Of a stretch of 32,000 bases of DNA, positions 4,980-25,903 are shown one piece after another. Every line of letters begins with the position of its first letter. Within the stretch, counting starts at the first letter, position 1. The position numbers and the translations under genes were made by a program. The DNA comes from Chlamydiota bacterium (lineage in GTDB: Bacteria > Auribacterota > JACPWU01): NCBI GenBank assembly GCA_016196885.1, contig JACPWU010000011.1, positions 90,001-122,000 of the forward strand, written 5' to 3'. Under the pieces are notes generated by a model. It was not told the DNA's origin. It was given only the letters and a program-made list of their open reading frames with translations, and searched no databases.

Positions 4980-5013
4980 ACATTGAAAATCTCTAAAAAC
5001 CCTTATCTGTAGA

Positions 5014-5135
5014 GACCTCTCAAAAAGGTCCCAGCTGCAAGGCGCCCACGAGCGACCGCGGAGGCGTACGTTTTCCAGTACGCCGCACAAGGGAGCGAAG
5101 TGGGCAACGCCGCAGATGGGCCTTTTTCAGAGGTC
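5014..5135. repeat. GC-rich intercistronic rod-like hairpin between mqnE and mqnA
   Basis: Arms gacctctcaaaaagg (5014-5028) and cctttttcagaggtc (5121-5135) match 14 of 15. Inner helices are cccagctgc/gcagatggg, ggcgcccac/gtgggcaacgcc (bulged) and an apical ggcgtac-N8-gtacgcc. The right arm contains the mqnE stop codon (5127-5129). Confidence 0.65.
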
Positions 5136-6230
5136 CCACATTTTAACCACTTGATAGAGCGCCCCTCTTTCGATGGGATCTCGTCCAGCCTCTCGAATGA
5201 GCCGAATCAACGTCTCACGTGTCAAAGCATCTTGCGTTTTTGCACCTGCATCGTGATAAATTTTCTCTTCAATCACAGAGCCATCAATATCATCTGCCCC
5301 ATAGAAAAGAGCAATTTGCGAAAGAGCGGGCGTCAGCATAATCCAATAAGCCTTAATATGTGGAAAATTATCCAGAAGAAGCCGGGAAACAGCCAAGGTC
5401 TTCAAATCATCTATGCCCGTCGTCCAACCCATTTTACCCATGCGATTGTTTTCAGGATGATAGGCCAGTGGAATAAAACATAAAAAACCGCCTGTTTCAT
5501 CCTGAGCCTCACGCAATTGAAGAAGGTGACGGACCCTCACATCATATTTTTCAACATGGCCGTAAAGCAGGGTGGCATTGGTCGGGATGCCTAAACGGTG
5601 AGCCGTCTTCGCAATTTCAAGCCAACGGGCTCCTGTCGCCTTCTCACCCGCAATTTTTTTGCGAATTTTCTCATCAAAAACCTCAGCCCCTCCGCCCGGT
5701 AAAGAACCCAAACCAGCTTCTTTAAAATCTCTTAAAACTTGTTCCGCTGTTTTCCCGTAAAGCTGAGCAAAAAAATCAACTTCCACACAAGTAAAGGCCT
5801 TAATGTGAAGTTTTGGATTCTCTTCTTTAATCGCTTTCAAAAGTTTTAAATAATAATCGTAAGGGAGATCTGGGTTAAGCCCCCCCACCATGTGAAGTTC
5901 TGTCAAGCCTTGATCTCGCACCTTGCGAATCTTTTCCAGAATCTGGTTTATATCCAGCGTATATCCTTCCGGATGGTCCACATCTCTTCTAAAAGAACAG
6001 AACAGACAATCCACGGCACAAATATTGGTATAATCAATATGTAGGTTGGTCACAAAATAAGCTTTATTGCCATTTTTTCTTTCTCGAGCCAGATTGGCAA
6101 GCATTCCAATAGTATTTAAATCCTGAGACTGAAAAAGCCGAAGGCCATCTTCATAAGAGAGCCGTTCCCCAGCTTCAACTTTATCCACGATCAAAGACAA
6201 CTCTGATTTTTCGAGAAGAAGATCTATCAT
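5127..6230 (-). CDS. mqnE: radical SAM enzyme, aminodeoxyfutalosine synthase (MqnE)
   Basis: CAVDCLFCSFRR cluster motif; LTELHMVGGLNP, FIPLAYHP, VSRLLLDNFPHIKAYWIM, GADDIDGSVIEEKIYHDAG and LIREAGRDPIERGALY blocks agree with my recollection of MqnE (SCO4494 family). Confidence 0.8.
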   Translation of the reverse strand: MIDLLLEKSELSLIVDKVEAGERLSYEDGLRLFQSQDLNTIGMLANLARERKNGNKAYFVTNLHIDYTNICAVDCLFCSFRRDVDHPEGYTLDINQILEKIRKVRDQGLTELHMVGGLNPDLPYDYYLKLLKAIKEENPKLHIKAFTCVEVDFFAQLYGKTAEQVLRDFKEAGLGSLPGGGAEVFDEKIRKKIAGEKATGARWLEIAKTAHRLGIPTNATLLYGHVEKYDVRVRHLLQLREAQDETGGFLCFIPLAYHPENNRMGKMGWTTGIDDLKTLAVSRLLLDNFPHIKAYWIMLTPALSQIALFYGADDIDGSVIEEKIYHDAGAKTQDALTRETLIRLIREAGRDPIERGALYQVVKMWDL

Positions 6231-7167: not shown

Positions 7168-7445
7168 AAGCCCCTCTCTTTTCTATTCAAGTCCCTGGCA
7201 GAAATGATTCGAATTCTTCTTCCTCGAACCGTAAATACAATAAACAATGATCTTAAAGCCTTTGAACGACCCATCAGAAGAAATCTCTTTTCCTTCCCAG
7301 CATACAAGATTTCCTTCAAAATACGCTTATGAGGATCAAAAAAAACCTCTTCGCACTCCTCACATGTCACGCTATGTTTGAGAAAATTTTTCTCTCTGTT
7401 TCCAGAATCCCACTCAAAACGAATTGGCTTACTAAAAACATCCAT
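7164..7445 (-). CDS. brnT: BrnT toxin (DUF497 ribonuclease family)
   Basis: FEWDSGNREKNFLKHSVTCEECEEVFFDP matches the BrnT signature (feWD..K...N..KH.v.feEa..vF.D); 93 aa. Confidence 0.85.
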   Translation of the reverse strand: MDVFSKPIRFEWDSGNREKNFLKHSVTCEECEEVFFDPHKRILKEILYAGKEKRFLLMGRSKALRSLFIVFTVRGRRIRIISARDLNRKERGL

Positions 7446-7713: not shown

Positions 7714-9159
7714 TTACAATCCCAATTTTTTCCAAATCTCATCTACTCGCGTTTTCACATCTCTATCCATCACAATCTCATCGGGCCACTCTCGGTCAAA
7801 ACCCTCTTCTTTCCACTTCCGCGTCGCATCAATTCCGACCTTGCTTCCCAGAGCCATACGACGGCCGGCATGGTCCAAGACATCAATGGGTCCCTGGGTA
7901 AACATAAAATCCCGTTCGGGATCAATGTGATTCAACGCCTTCCAGGCCACTTCCTTCACGTCCTGAATATTCACATCTTTGTCTACCACCACGACCACCT
8001 TGGCAAAACACAATTGGGCCAAACCCCAAATGGCACTCATGACTTTTCGGGCCTGACCTGGATAGCGCTTGTCAATCGAAACCAAAAGCAAATTATGAAA
8101 AACGCCTTCAGCCGGCATGTGCATATCTACAAGCTCAGGCAATTGCTTTTTTAAAATCGGAAGAAAAATTCTCTCGGTCGCCTTCCCCATGAAAAAATCT
8201 TCCTGAAGGGGTGCACCCACAATAATCGTCGGATAAACAGGATTTTTCTGCATCGTCATCGCCGTTACATGAAAAACAGGATAGAGATCCGCCAAAGAAT
8301 AATAACCCGTGTGATCGCCAAACGGGCCTTCCATTCGCATTTCTTCAGGATCCACATATCCTTCTAAAACAATTTGGGAATTAGCCGGGATTTCTAAATC
8401 AATCGTCTTACCCTTCACCATTTCTACCGCTTTATTTCGAATAAACCCAGCAAGCATCATTTCATCTACCCCTTCAGGCAAGGGTGCCGATGCAGAATAA
8501 ATCACGGCCGGATCGGGGCCTAAGGCAACTGCCACTTCCATCCGCTTCTTCATTAATTTCGCCTTGTGAAAATGAGCCGCCCCGCCCTTATGAATTTGCC
8601 AATGCATGCCGATGGTTTTCTCATCAAAAATTTGAAGGCGATACATGCCATAATTTGCAGCATCCGTTTCTGGATCTTGGGTGATCACCACGGGCAAAGT
8701 AATGTAACGCCCACCATCTTGCGGCCAACATTTCAAGGCCGGCAAATCAAAAAGCGAAAAATTTTCCGTGTTCACAATCTCCTGACAAGCCCCCTGACGA
8801 ATTGTTTTGGGTTTCAATGCTTTTAAAGTTTGCAACATGGGAAGCATTTGAACAGATTCAAAAAAAGTGGAAGGAATTTTAGGTTCTAAAAAAGAAGCCA
8901 CGCGCTCGGCCAATTCTGAAAAACTTTCTACACCGAGGGCCATGCACATCCGCTTCTCGGTTCCGAATGTATTAATCAAGAGAGGAATTTTTGAGCCTTT
9001 AACCTTTTCAAAAAGAAGCGCAGGACCTCCAGATTTGGTCACACGATCCGTGATCTCCGTGATTTCCAAAATGGGATCGACTTCAAAAGAAACGCGTTTA
9101 AGCTCCCCCCGCTTCTCAAAGGCTTTTATAAAATCGTTGAGTGTGTCGTAGGAATACAT
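7714..9159 (-). CDS. UbiD-family (prenyl-FMN dependent) decarboxylase, menaquinone-associated type
   Basis: 481 aa with UbiD blocks (GGPALLFEKVKGS, NYGMYRLQ, HWQIHKGGA, GPFGDHTGYY). Context of mqn genes suggests the SCO4490-like menaquinone decarboxylase. Confidence 0.85.
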   Translation of the reverse strand: MYSYDTLNDFIKAFEKRGELKRVSFEVDPILEITEITDRVTKSGGPALLFEKVKGSKIPLLINTFGTEKRMCMALGVESFSELAERVASFLEPKIPSTFFESVQMLPMLQTLKALKPKTIRQGACQEIVNTENFSLFDLPALKCWPQDGGRYITLPVVITQDPETDAANYGMYRLQIFDEKTIGMHWQIHKGGAAHFHKAKLMKKRMEVAVALGPDPAVIYSASAPLPEGVDEMMLAGFIRNKAVEMVKGKTIDLEIPANSQIVLEGYVDPEEMRMEGPFGDHTGYYSLADLYPVFHVTAMTMQKNPVYPTIIVGAPLQEDFFMGKATERIFLPILKKQLPELVDMHMPAEGVFHNLLLVSIDKRYPGQARKVMSAIWGLAQLCFAKVVVVVDKDVNIQDVKEVAWKALNHIDPERDFMFTQGPIDVLDHAGRRMALGSKVGIDATRKWKEEGFDREWPDEIVMDRDVKTRVDEIWKKLGL

Positions 9160-9349: not shown

Positions 9350-12300
9350 CTATGCCTTTCGACGACACATCATTGAAAGCATAATAATAGCCGTTTCAAA
9401 AAGGACATATCCGATAACGTAAGGCACCCCCCCTGAGCCAAATCCATAACTGTGCAGACCTGCCGCTAAAATAAAATTAACACCATAATAAGTCATTAAG
9501 ATCAGGGAAAATCCCAGAATAGCAAGTATCGAAATCCCAAAATTTCCGATCCACCCCGCATATCGCGCATGAATCATTGCCAAATATCCAAGAATAGAAA
9601 TCAAAGCCCATGTTTCCTTAGGGTCCCAACCCCAGAAACGGCCCCAGGATTCATTGGCCCAGACACCTCCCAATATAGTACCCGCTATAAGAAACATAAC
9701 ACCGATTTGGATCGTCTTATAGATAAAGCCTGCAGTTTGATGAAATGCCTCTTTTTTTTCAGGACCCAAAAAATAGAGTCCCAGATTGTAATGTGCAATT
9801 CCCATAGCCAAGGCAAAGGCACTGTAACTGAGCACAACAGTCAAAACGTGAACCGTCAACCAAAGATTGCTTTTTAAAACAGGAACCAGTTGAGTAATGC
9901 TTGAATCAATGGGCACGCTCTGGGCAATAACCAAGAGAAAAAATCCAAGAAAAGTTGCGACGGAGCTAAGCAATTTTGTCTTGTAGGCCATTTGAAGGAT
10001 CAGGGCAAAAAAACATATTCCCCAGATGAGAAAAATCAATGACTCATACATGTTTGAAACTGGAGCCCTTCCTGAAATGACGATTCTTAAGGCAATCCCC
10101 AAGGTATGGAAAACAAAACCCGCAACAAAGGGAAGTAAATAAATAATGGATCTTCCTTTGGGGGAGACAAAAAGTGAAAAGACAAAGGCTGAAAAATAGA
10201 AGACCCAGGCTTTCTGAAATGGGGCCCATTCATTATAAAGAATTTCCCTATTCAGGGAACCTTCAGATGGATAATCTCCCCCTGGCAAATTGCGAAGAAA
10301 ACGGGCAAGCTCTTTAGTAGACTCCTCAAAAGAGAAGGCATCCCTCTTTTGAAAAGAGAGCCCAACCTTCTGAAAAATTCTTTTAAATTCCTGGGCAAAT
10401 TTTGGATCGTATTGATCCATCTTTTTCAAACTCAACCATTCCCCATCCTTGTGTTGAATGTCTGGAAGAAGTGTATAGGCGTCTCCTGAAACGACATCAT
10501 GAAACTGTTGCATCTGCTGATAAAGCGCGGCAACCTTCCTTTCATAAGGGTTCAGTGCTTCCCTTTGCATTTGTTTTTGAATCATTTTTCCAAAAAGACG
10601 TTGCAAATTTTCATTCTGACTGAGTTCTTTAAACGAAAAATATTTTCTCTTCAGATCCAGCTTGGCATCTTCCATCAGTGGATGGAAGGTCACACGAATG
10701 ACCTGACGTTCAATAGCTTGTTCAGGGTCAATGGACAGAGACAGAAGATTTTCAATAGCCCTTTTCCCCTCGAATTTTTCTTTACCCGTCATCCATTTCA
10801 TAAATTCATTGGCGAAGGTCTGAAGAGGTTTTGTTCTCCCGCCACTTTGAATGGCAATTTTCTCACAATAAGAATAATTAAGTTTATCTTCAGCTGAGGA
10901 CGCTTGTGAAAGGGAAAAGAGAGCCATCATACAGAGAGAAACCGCTATTTTTTCAACCATGTTGTTTTTCTTGTTTTTAAAACGACTGGTAAAAAACAGA
11001 ATATAAATTCCTAGGATCATAACTATACTTCCTCCATAAATGAAATGAATACCGGGGTCATGGTTAATGGAAAAAATAGACACATCAGATCCATTATTTT
11101 CGCCCTGAACATAACTGGATTGAAAAATTTTAAAGCCCCTGTGTTTTAGCGGATGATTCATATAAATACTTCGATCTTGATCATGAATGATAGCAGGACC
11201 CGTTATTTTTACTTTGCTTTCATAGTTCATTGGCTGGTTAGAACCAGGATAAAATGCCAGGTTGAAATCAACAAGTTCAAGTTTAAAACCCAAAGGAATC
11301 ATTTGATGTTGATATCCTATCTCAATGTGCTCGCCATCCAGGTGCAGAACTTTGCGCCCACCTCTTTGGATCCAAATTTCACGGGTTTGATGGCCCAAAG
11401 AATTTCTTAATTTAAAACGCAGGGCTGGAGTCTGATCTTCCTTGTTGATTTCAGAAGGACTGATTCGAGACGACACCCTTGCCTTGGGAATGAAATCCTC
11501 AATCTTAAACTCAAGCCCCATCCACCCCGTTTGAAGAGGTTCTTTCAACGAAAGAGAACCTACTCGAGACAATCCAGAGCTGTTTTGGAGTTTGTAATAC
11601 AGTTTATTTCGAGGCCCTAAAAAGACGGTAAGAATATTCGCATGATCTAGATTCTTTTCGGGAATAAGGGTTTTAAGGGTTGCCGCAGGCGATAAATTTT
11701 TTTCTTTTAATTCTAGAAATAACTTTTCGACATCTTTCGTTCTTTTAATTTTCTGAAAGCAAACCGTGGCAGGACCCAATTCTAAATGGTTTTTGGCATC
11801 ATCCTCGAGGACCAGTTGATCTTCAACGGAAGTCATTGCATTGGCCAGACTAAACGAAAGAACCGGATATTTTCTCCTACCACCCGCCTTGTACACATTT
11901 TCCTGTACACTATTCTCATAATATTGATCAACCCTGAGTTCCAGGTCACTGTCAGGGATTTTTGTAATCCAGGGTGTTTGATTGAGCCCCTTGGTAAATC
12001 TTTTCTTCAGCGAATGCGTACCCTTCTGAGTCCGTATGTTTATTTCTTCAACATGACTCTCAAACGCTGTGGCACTTTCTTTTTCGCGAAGTGCAAGATC
12101 GCCTTCAACGCCAAAAAATTTGCTGACCATGGAGCCCGCCAAAAGCAAGAGAAGCCCTGCGTGTGTAATAACAAAACCCGTGTGATATTTTCTGAAGGGC
12201 CACCTTTTAAAGGTAGAAAACAAAACATTAAGAAACAACAAACCCAGAGTAACTACAAACCAATTCGTCTTGTATACCAGTTGCTGCGCAGCTTCAGTTC

Positions 12301-12421
12301 CCAGAGTGGACTCGTAGAAAGTCCCGACGGCAAGGATCATACCCAGGGCAATCATCAGGACAATGGCAAAGATATAGGATCCGGTAAAGGAAAGAATTCT
12401 TTTCAAAAGAAGCTCCATCAT
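9350..12421 (-). CDS. ccsBA: fused system-II cytochrome c biogenesis protein CcsBA (ResB-like N-terminus + CcsA/ResC C-terminus)
   Basis: 1023 aa. The N-terminal ResB-like membrane/periplasmic part is followed by a polytopic C-terminus with the WWD heme-handling motif WANESWGRFWGWDPKETWA. Confidence 0.85.
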   Translation of the reverse strand: MMELLLKRILSFTGSYIFAIVLMIALGMILAVGTFYESTLGTEAAQQLVYKTNWFVVTLGLLFLNVLFSTFKRWPFRKYHTGFVITHAGLLLLLAGSMVSKFFGVEGDLALREKESATAFESHVEEINIRTQKGTHSLKKRFTKGLNQTPWITKIPDSDLELRVDQYYENSVQENVYKAGGRRKYPVLSFSLANAMTSVEDQLVLEDDAKNHLELGPATVCFQKIKRTKDVEKLFLELKEKNLSPAATLKTLIPEKNLDHANILTVFLGPRNKLYYKLQNSSGLSRVGSLSLKEPLQTGWMGLEFKIEDFIPKARVSSRISPSEINKEDQTPALRFKLRNSLGHQTREIWIQRGGRKVLHLDGEHIEIGYQHQMIPLGFKLELVDFNLAFYPGSNQPMNYESKVKITGPAIIHDQDRSIYMNHPLKHRGFKIFQSSYVQGENNGSDVSIFSINHDPGIHFIYGGSIVMILGIYILFFTSRFKNKKNNMVEKIAVSLCMMALFSLSQASSAEDKLNYSYCEKIAIQSGGRTKPLQTFANEFMKWMTGKEKFEGKRAIENLLSLSIDPEQAIERQVIRVTFHPLMEDAKLDLKRKYFSFKELSQNENLQRLFGKMIQKQMQREALNPYERKVAALYQQMQQFHDVVSGDAYTLLPDIQHKDGEWLSLKKMDQYDPKFAQEFKRIFQKVGLSFQKRDAFSFEESTKELARFLRNLPGGDYPSEGSLNREILYNEWAPFQKAWVFYFSAFVFSLFVSPKGRSIIYLLPFVAGFVFHTLGIALRIVISGRAPVSNMYESLIFLIWGICFFALILQMAYKTKLLSSVATFLGFFLLVIAQSVPIDSSITQLVPVLKSNLWLTVHVLTVVLSYSAFALAMGIAHYNLGLYFLGPEKKEAFHQTAGFIYKTIQIGVMFLIAGTILGGVWANESWGRFWGWDPKETWALISILGYLAMIHARYAGWIGNFGISILAILGFSLILMTYYGVNFILAAGLHSYGFGSGGVPYVIGYVLFETAIIMLSMMCRRKA

Positions 12422-12469: not shown

Positions 12470-12576
12470 CACTATAGACATAGTATTCGATTTTAATAGC
12501 AGTATTATGATACAGATCATACAATCGTGCTGTTCACCTGTCGTATCATTCTCCCAACATGTCACAAGGGGTCCGC

Positions 12577-13224
12577 ATGAAATCTAGAAACAAGAAGATT
12601 ATCACAGGATTGTTTTTAATGTTCTGCTCTGCTTTACTTCAAGCGGGACCTATCTCAGTTAAAGATATTACGGATCATCCGGAATCCTTTATTCAAGACC
12701 AAAAAATTGAACTTCGATGCCATTTTCTAAAAGAAAGTAACTCCTGGCTTCACCTGCTCAGCGATTCATCAAGGTATACGGGTCTTTTTGTGTTTGAGAG
12801 GAAGGACAGTTTGATCATAAAAGAAAAAATTACTTTTCCGTATGTTTTTGCGCAAAGACAGCTGCAAGGTAAAATCCGAAATTTGCGTTCGGGGGATTTT
12901 ATACTTATTACAGGAACCTGTTTTAAGCATCAGGCTGTCGGAAAAGAGGCTGTAGGAATTGTTGCTGATCAGATTTTGGTTTTAGGTGAAGATGGAACCC
13001 CAGAGACTGTTGACTCGGAAAAAACCGGGGAATGGTCAGGACGGTTTAATCCACCCAAAAAAGCAAGATCCCTGGATCCTTCGGGTTCAGCCTTGGCAGC
13101 AGATCCTGATTCACAGGGAACTTATACCATCCGATTAGGAAACGACTCCCTCTCAGGGCTTCATTGGGGGGAGAGGTACACCATGAATGGTATGGAGTTT
13201 GTGGTAACGAAAGATGATAAGTAG
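12577..13224 (+). CDS. secreted protein of unknown function (first gene of the cytochrome cluster)
   Basis: Signal peptide MKSRNKKIITGLFLMFCSALLQA. No heme motif. The C-terminal third is Pro/Asp/Ser-rich. An alternative ATG lies at 12559. Confidence 0.55.
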   Translation: MKSRNKKIITGLFLMFCSALLQAGPISVKDITDHPESFIQDQKIELRCHFLKESNSWLHLLSDSSRYTGLFVFERKDSLIIKEKITFPYVFAQRQLQGKIRNLRSGDFILITGTCFKHQAVGKEAVGIVADQILVLGEDGTPETVDSEKTGEWSGRFNPPKKARSLDPSGSALAADPDSQGTYTIRLGNDSLSGLHWGERYTMNGMEFVVTKDDK

Positions 13225-13261
13225 TCAAAGTAGCTAAATTAGTCAAAGAAAAAAAGGGGGG

Positions 13262-14506
13262 ATGATGAAAAAAACACTGTTCTTCGTTTTGGCAGGCTTG
13301 TTCGTTTCTCTCATCTCTGTCCAGGACAGTTGGGCCGTTGCACAATGGTCACGCAAGTACGGAGTCAGTTGCACTACGTGTCACACAGCATTTCCAAGAC
13401 TCAGTTACTTTGGTGATCAATTTGTGCAGAATGGTTTCCAGATGCCCGGAACGGAAGATGGGGATGAAGTAGCAAAGCATATCATTGGGAGCAGCTTGAA
13501 TCTCAATGAATTGACTGATATCTTCGGCCTCAGGATCGCCGTAAGTCCGCTGGAGGTAAAAACCAATAGCCGCAAAGAGGGCTCTAGCAAGGAGACGCTG
13601 TTTAACATCGGAACTCCCAATTGGCTTCAGCTTTTTACAGCGGGAACCATCTTCAAGAATACCTCCATCTTTATTGAGACAGAGGTTGAGGAGCATGATA
13701 TTGCTTTCAACTGGTTCGAGTTGGGCTATCATAATATTCTAGGATCTTCCCTCTTGAACGTTAAGGCTGGAAAAATATCCATGATGGAATTCCATTCCTT
13801 GACAGGAAGATTGAGGGGAATTCCAAACATCAGCCATCAAATCCTTTCAGGCGTGAAAAGCTCGAATGGGACAGGAGACGATTCAATTGCTGTAGCTCAA
13901 CCCGTTCCAGCCGTGGAATGGTATGGATGGACAGGTCCTTTTGTAGCCGCGTTGGGTGTGTCCAATGGTGCCAAATTGCAGGACACGAACAGTGATAAGA
14001 ATTTTTTTGGCACTCTCAAATATTTTGTGGCTGAGGAAGGTGACTTCGCAGGATCCTCAGTTTCTTTGTGGGGACTCATCGGGGCGGACACGAAAGATCT
14101 CTTGGATGAAATCACGGATGCGTATACAGGCGAAGCCGAGAATGACTTTTGGCGGTTTTCTCCAGCGTTTAACATTCGGTATCTGGAAAAATGGGATTTA
14201 CAGTTTGCCTATCTTTTCGGACATGATGATGATTTCAACCTGACCGTGGAGGATAGTCAAGACACGGATTTCCAGGGCGTCGCAACCATTTTGGGATACA
14301 TGCCCAACAACAAATGGTATCTTGCCCTGCAATTTGACTGGGTTGATTCAGATGATGCGTCGAGCCTTCAATATACGAAGCTCAGCCCATCCATCTGGTA
14401 TTTTCCCAGAGACAACATGCGGATTGGTTTGACCGGTCGATTTGATTTGGAATCTGAATCGGACAAAAAGCATGAAGCTCTCGTTCATGTAAGGTCTATG
14501 TTCTAA
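13262..14506 (+). CDS. Cyc2/Cyt572-like fused monoheme cytochrome c - outer membrane beta-barrel porin
   Basis: A signal peptide is followed directly by AQWSRKYGVSCTTCHTAFPRLSYFGDQFVQNGF (single CXXCH at 13370-13384). The remaining ~360 aa show alternating hydrophobic beta-strand patterning and end in ...VHVRSMF (C-terminal Phe, an OMP signature). Confidence 0.6.
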   Translation: MMKKTLFFVLAGLFVSLISVQDSWAVAQWSRKYGVSCTTCHTAFPRLSYFGDQFVQNGFQMPGTEDGDEVAKHIIGSSLNLNELTDIFGLRIAVSPLEVKTNSRKEGSSKETLFNIGTPNWLQLFTAGTIFKNTSIFIETEVEEHDIAFNWFELGYHNILGSSLLNVKAGKISMMEFHSLTGRLRGIPNISHQILSGVKSSNGTGDDSIAVAQPVPAVEWYGWTGPFVAALGVSNGAKLQDTNSDKNFFGTLKYFVAEEGDFAGSSVSLWGLIGADTKDLLDEITDAYTGEAENDFWRFSPAFNIRYLEKWDLQFAYLFGHDDDFNLTVEDSQDTDFQGVATILGYMPNNKWYLALQFDWVDSDDASSLQYTKLSPSIWYFPRDNMRIGLTGRFDLESESDKKHEALVHVRSMF

Positions 14507-14520
14507 GAATGAATAAACCA

Positions 14521-14556
14521 GGGGGGTGCACCCATATCGGGGCATCCCCCTTTTTT
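14521..14556 (+). terminator. intrinsic terminator/attenuator after the Cyc2-like gene
   Basis: ggggggtgcaccc-atatc-ggggcatccccc forms about 12 bp (one bulge, one G.U), followed by tttttt. It begins 15 nt after the stop codon. Confidence 0.75.
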
Positions 14557-14571
14557 ATCATGGAGGCAAAA

Positions 14572-14895
14572 ATGAGAAGTTTATGGGCGTTTTGCTCCTT
14601 GCTTATGATTCTTTTTATCACAAGCATACATGCGGATGTAGTACCTGGGGAGGAAATGTACAACAAGAAATGCAAGTCCTGTCATGGAAAATCGGGAGAG
14701 GGTAATCCTATGATGGAGAAGGCGCTGAAGATAGATCCAACGCTTTTAGTCCTGAAAGACCTTAAAAAATCAGATGATGAATTAAAGACGATCATTCGGG
14801 ATGGCAAGAATAAGATGCCTTCCTTTAAGGGTAAAATTTCTGACGATGAAATCAGTAACATCGTACAATACGTTCGCAGTTTTTCACAAAAGTAG
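14572..14895 (+). CDS. periplasmic class I monoheme cytochrome c
   Basis: GGAGG lies 5 nt upstream of ATG 14572. Signal peptide MRSLWAFCSLLMILFITSIHA, CKSCHG heme site and distal NKMPSF methionine. Confidence 0.75.
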   Translation: MRSLWAFCSLLMILFITSIHADVVPGEEMYNKKCKSCHGKSGEGNPMMEKALKIDPTLLVLKDLKKSDDELKTIIRDGKNKMPSFKGKISDDEISNIVQYVRSFSQK

Positions 14896-14921
14896 AATTT
14901 TCCAAAATCAGGAAAAGAGAC

Positions 14922-14954
14922 AGAGGGCTTGTTTACATCGCCCTCTTTTTCTTT
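14922..14954 (+). terminator. intrinsic terminator-like hairpin after the cytochrome c gene
   Basis: agagggc-N11-gccctct (7-bp stem) followed by ttttcttt. Confidence 0.6.
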
Positions 14955-14981
14955 GTGGGGCCTGAAGGTGCGTGCTAAAAC

Positions 14982-16496
14982 ATGAAACCTCAGCGTTTTT
15001 CTGCCTACTTTCACAATTTTCTTACCTACATCGGCGTTGCCCTTTCCCTATTTGTCTTTTGTCTGGAGACCCTGCTTTATCTTGCAGATACTTTCATAAG
15101 CCATAAAACTCTCTATTTGGGATTAATCACCTATCTTATTCTTCCCCCTTTTTTATTTTTAGGACTTGCCTTCATTCCCATCGGCGCTCTTTGGAAAAGA
15201 CGACAGATCTTAAAAGGAAAATCTTCATCTCGGCCACGCCCTATCCATATTGATTTATCCCGCAGCACCCATAGAAATGCCGTTTTCATATTCCTCATTG
15301 GAACGTCAATACTTATCATCGCTACAATCATTGGTCTGTATAAATCTTATCACTACATGGATTCACCTGAATTTTGCGGCAAGATGTGCCATTCGGTTAT
15401 GAATCCGGAATTCACGACTTATCAACGTTCTCCCCATGCACACGTAAAATGTGTGGAATGCCATATCGGGTCTGGCGCAGAATCATATGCAAAATCAAAA
15501 TTTACAGGAAGTTATCAGCTCTACTCTTTGATGACCCATAAGTATGAAAAACCGATTCCGACCCCTGTGAAGAACTTGGGAGCGGCCAATAAAACTTGCG
15601 AACAATGTCATTGGCCCCAATATTTCTTTTCTTCAAAGGAAAAGGTTTTCCAGCATTTCTTGGGTGATGAATTAAACACGTATTGGCCCATCAAAATGCT
15701 CATCAAGATCGGCGGCGAACAAACGGGAGCGCCGCAACAAACAGGGATTCACTGGCATATGAATATCAATAATGACCTTCAATACATCGCACGTGATGAA
15801 AAAAGACAAGATATTGTCTGGATTAAACTAACCAACAAAACAACCGGCGAAGTGAAAGAATTCATGTCTAAGGCCAATCCCCTTGCGCCAGAAGAACTCA
15901 AAAAAGCACAATCCCACACCTTTGACTGCATTGATTGCCATAACCGCCCGAGCCATCGATTTCCAACCCCTACAGTTTCTATCAACGAGGCCTTGAGTAT
16001 GTCACGACTCGATACGAAATTACCCTATATCAAGCGTGAAGCCGTAAAGGCTTTAAGCCAGGAATATTCAACCACGGACGATGCCTTGCGTACCATTCGC
16101 AAACAACTTACAGAGTTTTATCAAAAGGAATATCCTGATCTTTCTAGAAATGAGAATGCCAAAATTGAGCGTGCGATTCAAGAAATCCAGGATATCCTGC
16201 GCAATACTCAATTTCCTGAAATGAAGGCGCGTTGGAATTCTCATCCGGACAATATCGGTCATATGGAGAATCAAGGCTGCTTTCGCTGTCATGGCAACGA
16301 CGATCTAATGACCCCGGATGGGAAAACCATTGGCAGAAACTGTTCAACCTGCCATGAAATATTGTCTCAGGGACCCGATTCAGAAAACGAATCACCTGGA
16401 CAGGCAAAAGAATTCAAACATCCCGTAGATCTGGGTATGGAGCCTGAAGAGATGGATTGCATGAGTTGCCATTCAGATCCCAAGAGTCTATATTAG
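14982..16496 (+). CDS. membrane-anchored heptaheme c-type cytochrome, NapC/NirT-related, ImcH-like
   Basis: About 3 N-terminal TM helices, then FCGKMCH (CX3CH) ...SPHAHVKCVECH in a NapC/NirT-like arrangement, plus CEQCH, CIDCH, CFRCH, CSTCH and CMSCH, giving 7 heme sites in 504 aa. Size and architecture match the published description of Geobacter ImcH. Confidence 0.6.
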   Translation: MKPQRFSAYFHNFLTYIGVALSLFVFCLETLLYLADTFISHKTLYLGLITYLILPPFLFLGLAFIPIGALWKRRQILKGKSSSRPRPIHIDLSRSTHRNAVFIFLIGTSILIIATIIGLYKSYHYMDSPEFCGKMCHSVMNPEFTTYQRSPHAHVKCVECHIGSGAESYAKSKFTGSYQLYSLMTHKYEKPIPTPVKNLGAANKTCEQCHWPQYFFSSKEKVFQHFLGDELNTYWPIKMLIKIGGEQTGAPQQTGIHWHMNINNDLQYIARDEKRQDIVWIKLTNKTTGEVKEFMSKANPLAPEELKKAQSHTFDCIDCHNRPSHRFPTPTVSINEALSMSRLDTKLPYIKREAVKALSQEYSTTDDALRTIRKQLTEFYQKEYPDLSRNENAKIERAIQEIQDILRNTQFPEMKARWNSHPDNIGHMENQGCFRCHGNDDLMTPDGKTIGRNCSTCHEILSQGPDSENESPGQAKEFKHPVDLGMEPEEMDCMSCHSDPKSLY

Positions 16497-16550: not shown

Positions 16551-16988
16551 TCATTCTACGGTGTTAAAGGGAACCGTCCTGGATATTTGAGCAATGGCAT
16601 GTCCCTTCTGAAAAACTTCAATCGTTATATTGATAAGAAATTTTCCCAAAATCCCTTTTGGAATTGTAAAACCATAACGGTCCCTTCTTGTCCCTTCCAT
16701 GGGGGATCGCTTCTCTCTATCCTTTAAAACAATATTGCCCTTGGCATCGAAAATTTCAATTTTAATAAAGGTTCTTGATTTTTTGGAAAATCCCTTTCGA
16801 GTGTATTTGATCTGAAGTGTCAATTCGCTTCCGGACTTAACCGTTTTTTCGCTCAAATCATTCCATGCATCATCATAGAGAATGACATATTGAAGTTCCA
16901 GCTTCGAACTTTCCGGATATGCCTTAACATTCAAGATGCTCGCAAAAAAAGAAACAATGAGAATATGAAAAAATACTTTTTTTGACAT
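16551..16988 (-). CDS. small secreted protein of unknown function
   Basis: ATG at 16988 gives the signal peptide MSKKVFFHILIVSFFASILNVKA. Beta-rich composition. Confidence 0.5.
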   Translation of the reverse strand: MSKKVFFHILIVSFFASILNVKAYPESSKLELQYVILYDDAWNDLSEKTVKSGSELTLQIKYTRKGFSKKSRTFIKIEIFDAKGNIVLKDREKRSPMEGTRRDRYGFTIPKGILGKFLINITIEVFQKGHAIAQISRTVPFNTVE

Positions 16989-17056
16989 AACTCTTCTCAC
17001 AATCTGATGAGAAACATACATGACTTTCAGTCACAAAGGGGGATGAAAATCACCCT

Positions 17057-19408: not shown

Positions 19409-20731
19409 ATGAGAATCCATCGCCATTTTCTACACTCAGAGCTTTTAAAGCATTTCCAAAACCCTAAAGAAGTCATTGTCTTAGAAGGGGTTAGACAAAC
19501 GGGTAAAACAACACTCATCAAACAGTCTTTAGAAGGGAAACCCTCCCTCATCGTCACTCTGACAGATGAAACCGTTCCTGTCATTCGCTTGAGGGAAGCT
19601 GCGACCTTTGAAGATTTTTCGGAAATTCTTGCCCGTGATTTTCATTTTCATCCTCGTGACGCAAAACCGCTTGTCATTGATGAAGCCCAAAAATCTCTCC
19701 ACTTGCATAAGTTCATTCTCAAAATGCATTCTGACTGGAAGGAAACACCCCTTGTCTTGTCAGGTTCAGCCATGGGTGTTTTCTTTAAAAGAAGTGAAAT
19801 CCAAAAAACGGTTTCACCTGCCGGAAGGGTTCGACGTTTTGTCTGTCGAGTCTTTTCTTTTGCGGAATATCTGGAACTGAAAGGAGAGGAAACACTGCTC
19901 TCGCAGATCCGTCATTTCAATCTGGGTCAAACCTTACATCCAACTCTACATGAGCGCCTCATGAATCTCTTTTATGATTATCTCTCATCGGGGGGATTTC
20001 CAGAGGCGATTAAGTTTGGAACAACGGAAAAAATTTATGATTATCTGGAAACACTTCTCTCTTTTTTCTGGCAAGATGCAGACCGATACCTTAGTGAACT
20101 CATGGGTTCTAACAAAAGACAATACGGAATGTTGTTTAGAACCATTCTAGAAAGTGTTGCACGTCTAACCTGTTTTAACTCTACACGGGCGAGTCTCATC
20201 TCGACAGATTCTCCAGCGTACCGCACAGACTTGCCTGTTCTGTTGGATGCCGCAGAGGAATGGCATTTTCTGTTTCGACTTCCGACATACATGGAGTCTT
20301 TGACCCCTCAAAGGCACAGCTCCAAAAAATATTTATGGGATGTCGGCGTCGTAAACCACTTTCTAAACGTGGGACGCCCTATTTCAGGTTCATCGTCGCC
20401 GGAGCTCCTCGCCAAACTTCTGGAGTCCTTTACAGCCCAAGAACTTATTTTTGCCTTGAGACACAAAGAGAGACTCTTTTCTTGGAAGAGTCAGGTTAAG
20501 CAGCCCAAAGAAATGGATTTCCTCGCCCGCTTTCCTGAAAAAGATGTAGGTATCGAAGTCAAATCATCTTCCTCTATCAGTCAAAAGGCCATTTCCCAAT
20601 TGAGGGAATTTAAAAAGAGAAATCCAAAAGCCCCTTGTTTTGTGATTTATCTGGGCCCTGTGATGCAAATCGAAAACATCTGGTTCATTCCTCCTTATTT
20701 GCTGGGTGAACTGGCAAGATGGGTAAAGTAA
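19409..20731 (+). CDS. AAA-family ATPase with C-terminal DUF4143-like region
   Basis: Walker A GVRQTGKTTL and Walker B LVIDEAQ; 440 aa, the typical size of the ATPase/DUF4143 family. Confidence 0.75.
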   Translation: MRIHRHFLHSELLKHFQNPKEVIVLEGVRQTGKTTLIKQSLEGKPSLIVTLTDETVPVIRLREAATFEDFSEILARDFHFHPRDAKPLVIDEAQKSLHLHKFILKMHSDWKETPLVLSGSAMGVFFKRSEIQKTVSPAGRVRRFVCRVFSFAEYLELKGEETLLSQIRHFNLGQTLHPTLHERLMNLFYDYLSSGGFPEAIKFGTTEKIYDYLETLLSFFWQDADRYLSELMGSNKRQYGMLFRTILESVARLTCFNSTRASLISTDSPAYRTDLPVLLDAAEEWHFLFRLPTYMESLTPQRHSSKKYLWDVGVVNHFLNVGRPISGSSSPELLAKLLESFTAQELIFALRHKERLFSWKSQVKQPKEMDFLARFPEKDVGIEVKSSSSISQKAISQLREFKKRNPKAPCFVIYLGPVMQIENIWFIPPYLLGELARWVK

Positions 20732-20915: not shown

Positions 20916-22400
20916 ATGCAAATGAAAGAACATAAATATCATTTCACCTCCGAATCCCTCGCCCAAGAAGCGCTAGGTGAGGCTGTTAGCTTAGGAGCCA
21001 CTTATGCAGATGTGCGCCTGATCGAATCTGGCTCGAGAGCGCTCGCGACTAAAAACGGGGTTCCAACCAGTCTTGATTTTGAAGAGTCTCAAGGTTTAGG
21101 CATCCGTCTTCTTTGTCAAGGGGCTTGGGGCTTCGCGGCCACACACGACCTTTCCAAAGAAAATGTGATTCGGACTGCTTTCAAGGCTATTAAAATCGCG
21201 AGAGCCAGTGCCCTTGCCCAAAAAACCCCCGTCAAACTTGCACAAGAATCGCCGATTCAAACCGAATGGTCGACACCCTATTTAATAGATCCCTTCTCCA
21301 TATCGATTGATGAGCAATTGAATTTCCTTTTTCAAATAGACGAGGCAGCTCGAAAAATCAAAGGGATTAGCATCGTTGAGACCCAAATGCATTTTGAAAA
21401 AGAGAAAAAACTTTTTCTTTCCAGTGAGGGGTCTAGAATCCTCCAAAATTTTATCACTTCAGGAGCCGGCTTTAATGTTCTCGCTTTTAAAGGGGGAGAT
21501 TTACAAAAGCGGTCTTATCCCAACTCTTTTGGCGGACAATACCAAAGAAAAGGTTATGAACTTATTCATGAACTAAAGCTTCTAGAAAATGTCCCACGCA
21601 TGGCTGAAGAAGCCGTTCAACTTCTTTCAGCCCCCAGCTGTCCTCAAGGAGAAAAGGATCTGATTCTAGATAGCTCTCAGTTGGGCCTTCAAATTCATGA
21701 ATCGGTGGGCCATCCGATCGAATTGGACCGCGTTTTAGGAAGCGAAGCCAATTATGCAGGCAAAAGTTTTTTGACCTTAGACCAGTTGCACCATCTTCAA
21801 TATGGATCTCCCCTTGTCCATGTCGTTGCAGATGCAACAGCTTCTCATGGACCGGGACTCGGAACTTTTGGATTTGACGATGAAGGCGTCCCTGCCCAGA
21901 GAACTGATATTATTCGAGAGGGACATTTTGTCGGCTACCTCTCTTCTCGCGAAACAGCCCCTGCCATTCATGAGAATCGTAGCAATGGAACCATGCGGGC
22001 CGAAAGTTGGAATCGCATCCCGTTGATTCGCATGACCAATGTCAGCCTTCTACCTCAAGCCGGCACGTTTGAAGAATTAATCTTAAGTACGCGAGACGGA
22101 ATTTATTTAGAAACCAACCGTAGTTGGAGCATTGATGATCGAAGGCTTAATTTTCAATTTGGAACCGAAATCGGCTGGGAGATTAAAAATGGTAAAAAAG
22201 GCCGCATGGTTAAAAATCCGATTTATTGGGGGATGACCCCTGAATTCTGGAACGCCTGTGACTGGATTTGTGACGCGAATCATTGGACGCTGTGGGGCAC
22301 TCCCAATTGCGGCAAAGGCCAGCCCTGTCAAACGATGGGGACAGGGCATGGCGCGAGCCCCGCTAGGTTTCTTGCGGTAAACGTTGGGGCCAGCCATTGA
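20916..22400 (+). CDS. tldD: TldD-family metalloprotease
   Basis: HESVGHPIELD (HExxxH) and C-terminal GTPNCGKGQP-type blocks; 494 aa. Confidence 0.85.
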   Translation: MQMKEHKYHFTSESLAQEALGEAVSLGATYADVRLIESGSRALATKNGVPTSLDFEESQGLGIRLLCQGAWGFAATHDLSKENVIRTAFKAIKIARASALAQKTPVKLAQESPIQTEWSTPYLIDPFSISIDEQLNFLFQIDEAARKIKGISIVETQMHFEKEKKLFLSSEGSRILQNFITSGAGFNVLAFKGGDLQKRSYPNSFGGQYQRKGYELIHELKLLENVPRMAEEAVQLLSAPSCPQGEKDLILDSSQLGLQIHESVGHPIELDRVLGSEANYAGKSFLTLDQLHHLQYGSPLVHVVADATASHGPGLGTFGFDDEGVPAQRTDIIREGHFVGYLSSRETAPAIHENRSNGTMRAESWNRIPLIRMTNVSLLPQAGTFEELILSTRDGIYLETNRSWSIDDRRLNFQFGTEIGWEIKNGKKGRMVKNPIYWGMTPEFWNACDWICDANHWTLWGTPNCGKGQPCQTMGTGHGASPARFLAVNVGASH

Positions 22401-22412
22401 TAGCAAGATCTA

Positions 22413-22445
22413 ACGCAGATCTGTTACGCGGATCGAACGCAGATC
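22413..22445. repeat. left array of three 9-mers ACGC(A/G)GATC
   Basis: acgcagatc 22413-22421, acgcggatc 22426-22434, acgcagatc 22437-22445. Spacing is 13 and 11 nt. Confidence 0.8.
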
Positions 22446-22455
22446 TGGAGCGAGT

Positions 22456-22857
22456 ATGGCGTTACTATACCGAGATATCACGTATGAGATCAGAGGGGCA
22501 TGTTTCTGGATATGGAAAGAATTTGGAAACGCTTTCAAAGAATCTATTGTTGACAAAGCCCTCACGGAAGAACTCAGAAAAAGAGGGCTTAAAGTTACCG
22601 ATCAAAAGCGCATTGACGTTTTTTATAACAACAAAAAGGTTGGAACTTATGTCCCGGATAAAATCGTCAATGATTGCGTCCTTGTTGAGATCAAGAGGAA
22701 ACCCTTTTTGCTTAAGCAAGATAAAGAACAGTTTTGGCATTATCTCAAAGGTTCTAGTTATAAACTAGGAATGTTAATCAACTTCGGAGAAAGGGGATTG
22801 GAAATCAAGCGAGTCATCTACGACATCAAGAGAGGGATCCGCATCAGATCCGCGTAG
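22456..22857 (+). CDS. GxxExxY-family protein (PD-(D/E)XK nuclease-like fold)
   Basis: ITYEIRGACFWIWKEFGNAFKESIVDKALTEELRKRGLKV...VFYNNKKVGTYVPDKIVNDCVLVEIK follows the family pattern. The GxxExxY motif itself is degenerate (AFKESIV). Confidence 0.7.
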   Translation: MALLYRDITYEIRGACFWIWKEFGNAFKESIVDKALTEELRKRGLKVTDQKRIDVFYNNKKVGTYVPDKIVNDCVLVEIKRKPFLLKQDKEQFWHYLKGSSYKLGMLINFGERGLEIKRVIYDIKRGIRIRSA

Positions 22858-22879
22858 AGGATCCGCGTTTGATCCACGT
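22836..22879. repeat. right array of four 9-mers GATCC(G/A)C(G/A)T, the inverse of the left array
   Basis: gatccgcat 22836, gatccgcgt 22847, gatccgcgt 22860, gatccacgt 22871. Spacing is 11, 13 and 11 nt. The array overlaps the last 8 codons and the stop of the GxxExxY gene. Confidence 0.8.
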
Positions 22880-22883
22880 CAAC

Positions 22884-25309: not shown

Positions 25310-25903
25310 ATGAAATTTAATGATTTTCGAAAAAAAATGAAGAAATCCATCTTTGGGGTCAAAGAGGCCCAAAGAATTGCCTGGGAAACCCAGCCCGCCG
25401 TCCTTAATCTCCAACTCTATCAATGGGTTAAGGCTGGAAACCTCATCCGTATGAGACGAGGCATCTATGCATTCCCAGATCAAATTCAAAGTCAACTGGC
25501 CTTGGTCCAGACCCTTTACCCTCCGGCTTACATCAGCCTAGAAAGCGCCCTGTCCCGTTATGGCTTAATGCCCGACGTCGTGTTTGCACTGACCCTGATC
25601 ACCCCCAGGTTAACACGCCGCTTCAAAACACCGGTGGGATATTTTATTTACCATCACATGAAACAGGATTTGTTTTGGGGATTTGATCCTGATACCCTGA
25701 TGGCCCAAAAAGAAAAGGCCTTGGTTGATTATCTTTATTTCAATAGATTTCTCTTAATGCCACAGACCCAATGCTGGGAAGGTCTGCGGTGGCAAAATTT
25801 GAAGGGAGTCCATTTCAAACGGGCAAGGGCTTATGCCCGAAAGACGGGAATTAAAAAGGTTCTAGACCTCATCATTTCTCTGGAGACGTATGGAAAGAAT
25901 TAA
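25310..25903 (+). CDS. abiEi: AbiEi-like antitoxin/transcriptional regulator (type IV TA)
   Basis: N-terminal winged-helix-like region ending in GNLIRMRRGIYAF. 14-nt overlap with the AbiEii-like gene. Confidence 0.65.
   Translation: MKFNDFRKKMKKSIFGVKEAQRIAWETQPAVLNLQLYQWVKAGNLIRMRRGIYAFPDQIQSQLALVQTLYPPAYISLESALSRYGLMPDVVFALTLITPRLTRRFKTPVGYFIYHHMKQDLFWGFDPDTLMAQKEKALVDYLYFNRFLLMPQTQCWEGLRWQNLKGVHFKRARAYARKTGIKKVLDLIISLETYGKN

Follow-up and report, generated by a model that had tools for sequence, protein, structure and literature searches.

A four-gene operon pairing a Cyc2-like porin-cytochrome with an ImcH-like heptaheme cytochrome: a possible compact pathway between the quinone pool and the cell exterior

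Introduction

Cyc2 serves as a marker of neutrophilic iron oxidation and ImcH as a marker of iron reduction; here, we describe one operon that holds homologs of both, in a 32,000-nucleotide stretch of DNA (hereafter the window; positions 90,001 to 122,000 of contig JACPWU010000011.1) from a metagenome-assembled genome (MAG; GCA_016196885.1). The published criteria for Cyc2 comprise a signal peptide, a single CXXCH heme motif with A-X-P-X-F-A-R-[Q/K]-[T/Y] upstream and P-X-L at +4, and an OprO/OprP-like porin of ~16 strands, with at least 365 amino acids (Keffer et al., 2021; PMC8406198). The upstream motif is stated to be unique to Cyc2, and sequences lacking P-X-F-A-R-[Q/K]-[T/Y] were dropped from the published tree (PMC8406198). 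In the standard model, the partners of Cyc2 are Cyc1 together with a cbb3 oxidase, the bc1 complex, or alternative complex III (ACIII). ImcH of Geobacter (GSU3259; Levar, 2014; PMC6295460) is a menaquinol oxidase needed for high-potential acceptors, which is electroneutral and has hemes of -350 to -150 mV (bioRxiv 2023.05.03.539133). The ImcH fingerprint consists of a length of 495–519 amino acids, three N-terminal transmembrane helices, an atypical CX3CH motif by the membrane domain, and six CX2CH motifs; mtrAB or mtoAB were not found next to imcH, and ImcH homologs were found only in Fe(III) reducers (Zhong and Shi, 2018; PMC6295460). Two further systems join an outer-membrane conduit to a quinol-reactive protein of the inner membrane: the mtoA-mtoB-mtoD-imoA (cymA) cluster of Sideroxydans lithotrophicus ES-1 (PMC4412085; PMC13390432) and CymA-MtrCAB of Shewanella oneidensis.

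The operon in the window resembles each of these systems in part. With Cyc2 and Cyt572 (Acidithiobacillus ferrooxidans Cyc2, Mariprofundus Cyc2PV-1, and Leptospirillum Cyt572; PMC8406198), the product of its second gene (gene 2) shares a signal peptide, an N-terminal CXXCH, P-X-L at +4, R-K-Y at -3, a length of about 410 amino acids, a barrel like that of 16-strand porins, and an aromatic C-terminal residue. It differs in that its subclade has S/A-Q-W/F where canonical Cyc2 has P-x-F, and in that the neighbors of the subclade are NapC/NirT-type quinol dehydrogenases instead of the standard partners. As in the rus operon of A. ferrooxidans (cyc2-cyc1-coxBACD-rus), where the co-transcription of Cyc2 and its carrier yields a complete pathway, a Cyc2-type gene is accompanied by that of a periplasmic c-type carrier, and an aa3-type oxidase is adjacent in one related locus (L051); unlike the rus operon, the window has neither rusticyanin nor an oxidase, and A. 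ferrooxidans has, on the quinone side, a bc1 complex from a separate operon instead of a NapC/NirT-type protein. Gene 4 encodes 504 amino acids compared with 507 in ImcH, and it shares its operon with the genes of two monoheme proteins, a class I cytochrome c and a porin. In Geobacter, by contrast, ImcH has the low-potential triheme PpcA as its partner, and multiheme porin-cytochrome complexes, encoded at other sites, form the outer-membrane conduits. The mto cluster similarly combines a conduit, a periplasmic class I monoheme cytochrome c, and a NapC/NirT-family protein, but its outer-membrane part is a two-protein decaheme/porin complex able to contact solids, whereas the window encodes a single monoheme porin; its inner-membrane part is a tetraheme protein with one transmembrane segment, compared with a heptaheme protein with three; MtoD is bis-His ligated (PMC4412085), whereas the cytochrome c of the window appears to be His/Met ligated; and S. 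lithotrophicus uses ubiquinone (PMC13390432), whereas the quinone biosynthesis genes seen in the window are all for menaquinone. The Shewanella pathway, which runs outward, likewise consists of a NapC/NirT quinol dehydrogenase, a shuttle in the periplasm, and a conduit in the outer membrane; it is multiheme throughout, has low-potential carriers and a 26-strand porin, and can reach solid minerals, in contrast to the nine hemes in three proteins predicted here and a pore that would admit only soluble species.

The three redox proteins encoded by the operon probably constitute one pathway between the quinone pool and the exterior of the cell. We favor, at a rough probability of 0.5, an outward flow of electrons from menaquinol via the ImcH-like protein, the cytochrome c, and the Cyc2-like porin to a soluble high-potential acceptor.

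Results and Discussion

Operon Organization

The four open reading frames (ORFs) of the operon are all on the + strand and span positions 12559–16496 of the window (Table 1), with intergenic gaps of 37, about 65, and 86 bp. A first-pass annotation, made from the DNA sequence by a model, had placed four co-directional genes at 12577–16496, and they are present at or near those coordinates. The window matches NCBI record JACOUD010000035.1 of assembly GCA_016178005.1, a MAG whose naming and relatives suggest an origin in groundwater. The start of gene 1 at M7 agrees with the NCBI call of 215 amino acids, and M22 is the likely true start of gene 3, in agreement with both the NCBI call and the homolog in a related locus (L007). 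Among the ORFs of at least 80 amino acids in the window, heme c motifs occur only in genes 2, 3, and 4, which have nine heme sites in total.

The Cyc2-Like Porin-Cytochrome

Gene 2 encodes a hydrophobic segment (residues 3–22) and a sole CXXCH motif, C37-T-T-C-H41, which is followed by P-X-L at +4 (H41-T-A-F-P45-R-L47); the C-terminus is ...RSMF. In an alignment of 41 homologs, R31, K32, C37, C40, H41, P45, and R46 are invariant, and the invariance of C37, C40, and H41 indicates that the heme motif is not a chance match. Nearly all homologs shown in this alignment have an aromatic C-terminal residue, which is typical of outer-membrane barrels. The AlphaFold2 (AF2) model of gene 2, built with the 41-homolog alignment, is a porin-type barrel (predicted local distance difference test score, pLDDT, 87; predicted template modeling score, pTM, 0.84), in which short N-terminal helices around the heme motif are followed by 16 long strands (residues 88–413), as counted from the DSSP secondary-structure listing. 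Its best matches in the PDB by Foldseek are the 16-strand porins OmpU, PorB, OmpF, and Omp32 (E down to 1e-12), and a PDB sequence search with the gene 2 profile gave nothing relevant. OprP (2o4v), the template of published Cyc2 models (PMC8406198), also matches by Foldseek (template modeling score 0.55). The initial description of a protein of ~414 amino acids with a signal peptide, a single CXXCH, and a barrel body, for which structure prediction had been proposed as a check, is thus borne out.

The canonical motif upstream of the heme site is lacking in gene 2, which has A25-V-A-Q-W-S-R-K-Y33, so that the P, F, and A of the motif are replaced by A, W, and S; the A, R, K, and Y are kept, as is the three-residue spacing from R-K-Y to the first cysteine. 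The corresponding motif of the subclade is A-[VT]-[SA]-Q-[WF]-[SA]-[RK]-K-[YF], typically A-V-S-Q-W-x-R-K-Y. An exhaustive profile search covering 1.84 billion representatives returned 3767 representative relatives of gene 2 at E ≤1e-3, with 1584 at E ≤1e-10. Among the best 150 of these, the S-Q-W variant is found in approximately the top 50; past about E 1e-63, the canonical A-[IV]-P-A-F-A-R-K-Y is found in most of the relatives in which the N-terminus is included, and most full-length relatives with this motif align over nearly the whole gene 2 profile. By hhalign, the variant subclade matches 35 canonical-motif proteins, which are Cyc2 by the published motif only and of which none traced back to a cultured iron oxidizer, with a probability of 100% and an E-value of 3.4e-71 over 381 columns.

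The relationship to Cyc2/Cyt572 that had been proposed for gene 2 therefore stands as full-length profile homology, but not as identity of signature, given the three differing positions of the upstream motif. Profile comparison confirms gene 2 as a member of the Cyc2 superfamily, and on sequence it falls into a distinct sister subclade ("SQW") rather than canonical Cyc2, one that the published motif filter would exclude; surveys relying on this filter may consequently undercount porin-cytochromes. The SQW subclade comprises at least 70 non-redundant loci in about a dozen phylum-level groups, with no member from a cultured iron oxidizer. The 85 word-indexed homologs of gene 2 are all from uncultured lineages and are annotated as hypothetical or as generic "cytochrome c," and a homolog search seeded with a canonical-motif relative (P0327) gave 20 matches, none of them from a cultured iron oxidizer.

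The same MAG encodes a second Cyc2-like paralog (P0006; locus tag HYS08_05040; L006, 2397–3632), which is 59% identical to that of the window (HYS08_04535) and stands alone, without cytochrome neighbors. An AAA_14/DUF4143 gene lies beside this paralog, and one is also present in the window (19409–20731). A Bacteroidota contig (L026) encodes a near-canonical Cyc2 (A-I-P-V-F-S-R-K-Y) at 1260–2507 (-) and a variant-motif Cyc2-like protein (T-S-Q-W-A-R-K-Y) at 9779–11194 (+), so that both subclades coexist in one genome; an ImcH-like protein, a Rieske/cytochrome b complex, and multiheme cytochromes are also encoded there.

The ImcH-Like Heptaheme Cytochrome

Gene 4 is predicted by a Kyte-Doolittle scan to have transmembrane segments at residues 13–39, 43–71, and 98–122, compared with 13–35, 45–67, and 100–122 in GSU3259 (Table S3 of PMC6295460). 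A CX3CH motif (C132-G-K-M-C-H137) follows the third segment, and CXXCH motifs are present at 157, 206, 316, 433, 454, and 493; the heme sites of GSU3259 are at 132, 156, 205, 311, 428, 448, and 486 (Table S3 of PMC6295460). The intervals between sites are accordingly 25, 49, 110, 117, 21, and 39 residues in gene 4 vs. 24, 49, 106, 117, 20, and 38 in GSU3259. Gene 4 matches PF03264 (NapC/NirT N-terminal region) at residues 99–189 (44 bits), and this homology is confined to the third transmembrane segment and the first hemes, as in ImcH. Purified ImcH has conserved E127, K173, and Y188 (bioRxiv 2023.05.03.539133), and D127, K173, and Y188 are found at these numbered positions in gene 4. By published motif and helix positions, rather than by alignment, gene 4 matches the ImcH fingerprint, so that the resemblance to ImcH noted in the first-pass annotation extends to length, transmembrane positions, the CX3CH, and the spacing of the six CXXCH motifs. 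The description as a seven-heme NapC/NirT-related protein with three transmembrane segments also holds, except that the seven sites are six CXXCH motifs and one CX3CH rather than seven CXXCH motifs.

There are >7900 homologs of gene 4, the best-scoring of which are about 500 amino acids long, in Omnitrophota, Latescibacteria, KSB1, Gemmatimonadota, Zixibacteria, and other phyla. Published ImcH homologs outside Geobacter share 31–49% identity with GSU3259 and are from phyla that include Omnitrophica, Zixibacteria, and Gemmatimonadetes (PMC6295460), so that some phyla are common to both sets. The only solved relative of gene 4 is NrfH (2j7a_C; residues 105–211, E 1.3e-4). An identity as NrfH or TorC was considered and rejected: gene 4 scores 50.8 bits against TIGR03153 NrfH (cutoff 134.2) and 25 against TorC (cutoff 455), and it has three transmembrane segments and seven hemes. 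There is no nrfA, napA/napAB, or torA gene in the 32-kb window. A membership in a nitrite or nitrate system, which would have undermined the earlier interpretation, is accordingly not indicated.

The next-closest ImcH-like protein (54% identity) is encoded in another Chlamydiota MAG (GCA_030699095.1; L045, 6181–11341), where two monoheme cytochrome c genes precede it, and a small multiheme cytochrome, an iron–sulfur (FeS) protein, and an NrfD-type membrane subunit follow, which is a different set of partners.

The Monoheme Cytochrome c and the Secreted Protein

Gene 3 matches PF13442 (61 bits) and PF00034 and encodes a signal peptide followed by CKSCH; among solved structures, those of cytochromes c6 and c552 and of CcoP heme domains come closest (E about 3e-10), in keeping with the soluble class I cytochrome c first proposed. 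The segment GKNKMPSF aligns to GKNAMPAF of cytochrome c6, which we take to be the site of the Met axial ligand in that protein, and this suggests His/Met ligation of the gene 3 cytochrome. Cytochromes of the His/Met c6/c552 class are typically of high potential, and the potential of the gene 3 cytochrome would likewise be fairly high.

Gene 1 encodes a hydrophobic signal-like segment at its N-terminus, and no Pfam or NCBIfam family matched it, in agreement with its initial designation as an unknown secreted protein. Homologs occupy the same position in three related loci, L007, L050, and L051 (58, 49, and 42% identity), and none were found in the other Cyc2-like loci surveyed. The invariant residues include H34, C48, H59, C115, and H118, and a conserved segment reads G-x-C-F-K-H-x-A-x-G-K-x-A-V-G-I; a metal or cofactor site is possible on this basis. 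The single-sequence AF2 model of gene 1 is of low confidence (pLDDT 41.6).

Conservation Across Genomes

Cyc2-like loci were surveyed in species-representative genomes (35, all MAGs), metagenomes (80), and through protein look-ups; dereplication at 95% identity left 70 loci, of which 46 have at least 3 kb of downstream sequence. The order gene 1, Cyc2-like, cytochrome c, ImcH-like recurs in three related contigs: L007 (GCA_016178055.1; Cyc2-like 87% and ImcH-like 70% identity) and two contigs from sequencing-run assemblies, L051 (72 and 61%) and L050 (64 and 60%). The gene order is thus conserved in related genomes, as the first-pass annotation had anticipated, and because the flanking genes differ in all three, the cassette itself is the conserved unit.

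An ImcH-like gene is near the Cyc2-like gene in six surveyed loci, namely the window, these three contigs, a Bacteroidota MAG (at a distance of about 4 kb), and an Ignavibacteriaceae MAG. The last of these (L037, 9947–12387) has the Cyc2-like and cytochrome c genes followed by a truncated ImcH-like remnant of 178 amino acids, in which the CX3CH has degenerated to CGQICY and the frame stops at the second heme site. It seems to be a copy of the trio in decay, and the trio would accordingly have existed outside the clade of the window. Outside this clade, the nearest ImcH-like homologs (L045, L046, and L047) have no Cyc2-like neighbor and stand instead with CbcL-like, Rieske/cytochrome b, NrfD/FeS, and MtrA-like proteins. 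Judged from gene neighborhoods, the tight pairing of Cyc2-like and ImcH-like genes is a clade-level feature, plus one decayed copy and one loose case.

Eight further loci (L032, L033, L035, L039, L043, L053, L055, and L081) encode a Cyc2-like protein, a monoheme cytochrome c (two in L039), and a small NrfH/CymA-like tetraheme-type cytochrome of 192–217 amino acids with one transmembrane segment and 3–4 CXXCH motifs. These are labelled, for example, as Neomarinimicrobiota, Deltaproteobacteria, or Acidobacteria, or are unclassified MAGs or metagenome contigs. A NapC/NirT-type quinol dehydrogenase thus accompanies the porin in 14 of the 46 loci (six ImcH-like and eight NrfH/CymA-like); other neighbors are subunit I of an aa3-type oxidase (three loci), FeoB (two), and MtrA-like cytochromes (three). 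In about 27 of the 70 loci, the next gene after the Cyc2-like one encodes a monoheme cytochrome c. As far as gene content shows, the general pattern is a Cyc2-like protein, a monoheme cytochrome c, and any NapC/NirT-type quinol dehydrogenase, and it recurs across many lineages.

In Zixibacteria (L001) and Elusimicrobia (L003 and L018), the Cyc2-like gene lies inside large clusters with an MtrA-like decaheme cytochrome, an MtrB/PioB porin, a CbcL-like protein, a 14-heme NapC/NirT protein, and a Rieske/cytochrome b complex; with MtrA/MtrB-type and Cyc2-like genes side by side, monoheme and decaheme conduits can coexist. The 556-amino-acid NapC/NirT neighbor in L003 was considered as a further ImcH-like protein and rejected, as it has 14 CXXCH motifs and only a 115-residue local match (33% identity). 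In L008 (1321–9254) and L012 (1–6357), from MAGs labelled Deltaproteobacteria and Pseudomonadota, an aa3-type oxidase and FeoB are encoded directly upstream of the Cyc2-like gene, with FeoA in L008 and the oxidase of L012 cut at the contig end; cytochrome c maturation (Ccm) genes directly follow the Cyc2-like gene. Such surroundings suggest a role in iron oxidation or uptake for these two loci, and not in quinol-linked reduction.

Proposed Pathway and Alternatives

The analysis shows how the genes are ordered and conserved, to which families they belong, and which folds and topologies are predicted for their products; that the three proteins pass electrons to one another, in which direction, and with what substrate is our inference. 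In the inner membrane, the ImcH-type heptaheme protein would exchange electrons with menaquinol at an NrfH-like site by its first heme (CX3CH). In the periplasm, the c6-like monoheme cytochrome would shuttle single electrons; in the outer membrane, the Cyc2-type porin would have one heme in its N-terminal domain, and only dissolved redox species small enough to get to this heme could react with it. As the last acceptor, we envisage a soluble oxidant of high potential, for which ligand-bound Fe(III) is a candidate and Mn(III) a further possibility. Read in this way, the operon would form a self-contained terminal-reductase module with one redox protein per compartment, and gene 1 would encode a clade-specific secreted accessory protein.

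Outward flow is favored because NapC/NirT-family genes are normally co-encoded with the reductase that they serve (NrfH-NrfA, NapC-NapAB, and TorC-TorA), because the window shows only menaquinone biosynthesis genes and menaquinone is of low potential (about -70 mV), and because menaquinol oxidation has been shown for ImcH and the gene 3 cytochrome looks high-potential. Furthermore, as ImcH is electroneutral, the proton-motive force cannot drive it backwards. In S. lithotrophicus, the NapC/NirT protein ImoA interacts with the low-potential monoheme PmcA (-143 mV) but not with MtoD (+155 mV) (2026 study; PMC13390432); by this contrast, the potential of the gene 3 cytochrome would decide which directions are possible.

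Several points weigh against outward flow. Every characterized Cyc2 is an Fe(II) oxidase, and the PV-1 protein has a potential of +208 mV (PMC8406198); a high-potential c-type carrier by Cyc2 is the classic iron-oxidation arrangement; the closest cluster analog, mtoAB-mtoD-imoA, is from an iron oxidizer (PMC4412085; PMC13390432); and genes for an aa3-type cytochrome c oxidase adjoin the module in L051 and the Cyc2-like genes of two other loci (L008 and L012). In addition, a high-potential cytochrome c limits outward acceptors to those above roughly +200 mV and of a size that the porin admits. The uniform Fe(II) oxidation by tested Cyc2 proteins and the oxidase genes of these three loci (in L051, COX2, COX1, and COX3, divergent from and next to the module) would also suit a scheme in which the cytochrome c is a hub: the Cyc2-like protein would oxidize soluble Fe(II) or Mn(II), the ImcH-like protein would oxidize menaquinol in place of the bc1 complex or ACIII, and both would reduce the cytochrome c, which would pass electrons to a terminal oxidase encoded elsewhere. 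The known components would then run in the directions shown experimentally, and the c6/c552/CcoP-like type of the cytochrome is one that commonly donates to oxidases. The high-potential MtoD of S. lithotrophicus is, moreover, now thought to feed an oxidase and not the NapC/NirT protein (PMC13390432). We regard such a hub as the strongest rival, although as less likely than outward flow. There is no oxidase within the 13 kb upstream or the 15 kb downstream of the operon in the window, nor in the 8-kb flanks of L007, and COX1 is near only three of the 46 loci, against 14 with a quinol dehydrogenase. Two electron inputs in one operon without their shared acceptor would be less economical than a complete pathway, and an ImcH-type link from quinol via cytochrome c to an oxidase is not described.

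The remaining alternatives differ from outward flow in direction, purpose, or coupling. Iron acquisition or homeostasis, in which the porin would reduce chelated Fe(III) for Fe2+ uptake or oxidize excess periplasmic Fe2+ and the quinone pool would be merely the electron source or sink, is in keeping with the genes that immediately precede the Cyc2-like gene in L008 (FeoB and FeoA) and L012 (FeoB), FeoB in the neighborhood of L015, an Rrf2-family regulator upstream in the Zixibacteria locus, and an Nramp transporter nearby in L009. It is nevertheless unlikely, since neither the window nor the modules of L007, L050, and L051 contain an iron-transport gene, a dedicated heptaheme quinol dehydrogenase would be a large investment for an assimilatory flux, and the candidate regulator is of the Crp/Fnr type rather than Fur. 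Very unlikely, too, is that the three proteins share no pathway, the ImcH-like protein and cytochrome c serving another periplasmic reductase or oxidase and the Cyc2-like gene being merely co-transcribed: ImcH-like homologs do occur without a Cyc2-like neighbor (L045, L046, and L047), and many Cyc2-like genes, including the paralog in the same MAG, stand alone, but the order persists in relatives with as little as 64% (Cyc2-like) and 60% (ImcH-like) identity, although their flanking genes differ, and without functional coupling it would be difficult to account for the fact that at least eight further lineages independently combine the porin with a cytochrome c and a NapC/NirT-type protein. Inward flow from Fe(II) via the Cyc2-like protein, the cytochrome c, and the ImcH-like protein to menaquinone, as first proposed for mtoAB-mtoD-cymA, would follow the cluster logic of an iron oxidizer's Mto cluster (PMC4412085), but appears highly improbable. 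The c6-like His/Met cytochrome and Cyc2 would lie roughly 300 mV above menaquinone, an uphill step that the proton-motive force could not drive through an electroneutral ImcH (bioRxiv 2023.05.03.539133), and MtoD fails to interact with ImoA for a thermodynamic reason, a low-potential PmcA being needed (PMC13390432). Of the outward and inward options that the first-pass annotation had left side by side, the outward one is thus favored, and the inward one, into menaquinone, is thermodynamically the weakest; a cytochrome c hub was not among the options in that annotation.

Implications

The component families are known, and it is their combination that appears to be new: searches of the open-access literature for Cyc2 with ImcH, with Chlamydiota, or with a quinol dehydrogenase found no description of the pairing, consistent with the initial statement that no Cyc2-type/ImcH-type module had been described. 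One preprint reports that the genome of Geobacter sulfurreducens has both a Cyc2 match and ImcH, which are not described as linked. What appears to be new is a Cyc2-type monoheme porin as the outer-membrane partner of a NapC/NirT-type (here ImcH-type) quinol dehydrogenase, a large Cyc2 subclade with a variant signature, and the occurrence of such a module in a lineage labelled Chlamydiae by the submitter, a group not associated with the extracellular or periplasmic metal redox chemistry that the operon would add. With both genes in one operon, marker calls in the style of FeGenie can contradict each other at the same locus, and the neighborhood must be read.

Tentatively, we propose a self-sufficient three-protein respiratory module in which a Cyc2-family porin, as the terminal reductase, receives electrons of menaquinol through an ImcH-type protein and passes them to soluble Fe(III) or Mn(III). 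If this is true, the Cyc2 superfamily would not consist purely of iron oxidases, ImcH-type proteins could be hard-wired to an outer-membrane partner, and the Chlamydiae-labelled lineage, together with at least eight uncultured lineages with the NrfH-type arrangement, would respire extracellular soluble metals with only nine hemes. With four genes and nine hemes, the cassette is small enough for a heterologous host and makes testable both the operation of a Cyc2-type porin in reverse and the link of Cyc2 electrons to the quinone pool.

Genomic Context and Regulation

Table 1. Features of the operon and its surroundings, in window coordinates.
Feature	Position	Strand	Details
Gene 1: secreted protein without known family	12577–13224	+	215 aa from M7; ORF opens at 12559 (221 aa)
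Gene 2: Cyc2-type fused monoheme cytochrome-porin, variant "SQW" subclade	13262–14506	+	414 aa
Gene 3: periplasmic class I monoheme cytochrome c	14572–14895	+	107 aa from M22 (likely start); ORF opens at 14509 (128 aa)
Gene 4: homolog of ImcH-type inner-membrane heptaheme menaquinol dehydrogenase	14982–16496	+	504 aa
Perfect palindrome TTATGATACAGATCATA, candidate Crp/Fnr-family operator	12505–12521		Intergenic region between ccsBA and the operon; kept in L007 and L051
Fused CcsBA (ResB + CcsA), system II cytochrome c maturation	9350–12421	-	1023 aa; PF05140, PF01578, TIGR03144 CcsB 169 bits
Futalosine genes: radical SAM proteins with CofH/MqnC C-terminal region (MqnC/MqnE-type)	3092–4213, 5127–6230
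Futalosine genes: PF02621 proteins	4182–5090, 24394–25236
Menaquinone decarboxylase (TIGR03701)	7714–9159		645 bits
Convergent signal-anchored protein, no family match	16551–17021	-	156 aa

As first described, the operon is divergent from ccsBA; the three cytochromes require the fused product of that gene for heme attachment. In seven of the first 35 loci surveyed, genes for cytochrome c biogenesis are next to the Cyc2-like gene; in the closest relative, L007, ccsBA is not adjacent, and the linkage is therefore loose. Five genes for menaquinone biosynthesis by the futalosine pathway lie on both sides of the operon, in accord with the description of a cluster surrounded by such genes. Neither a large porin of the MtrB/PioB type nor a decaheme cytochrome of the MtrA type is encoded in the window.

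A TTATGAT-N4-ATCATA box lies 5' of the first module gene in the window, in L007 (about 7239–7255), and in L051 (about 5140–5156), amid intergenic sequence that otherwise differs among these loci; the L050 contig has no upstream sequence. In both L007 and L051, the module adjoins genes for Crp/Fnr-family regulators, which lack the N-terminal cysteine cluster of classical FNR. FNR-like boxes are not enriched in the window (40 found vs. 35.9 expected), so that the case for an operator rests on conserved position and not on abundance. From these features, the module is probably under a Crp/Fnr-type regulator. A scan of the window for promoters and terminators gave nothing beyond chance, and its composition profile shows no obvious foreign island.

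The convergent protein downstream of gene 4 has a counterpart at the same position in L007 only (66% identity), is absent from L050 and L051, and is probably outside the module. Two tandem genes for PmbA/TldD-family metallopeptidases and a split transketolase, the N- and C-terminal halves of which are separate genes, are present at 20916–24224 and 29169–31102. An AbiEi/AbiEii toxin-antitoxin pair (25310–26723) and a HepT-like/NTase-substrate-binding protein (28371–28778) represent mobile-type defense or addiction genes, a few kb from menaquinone genes.

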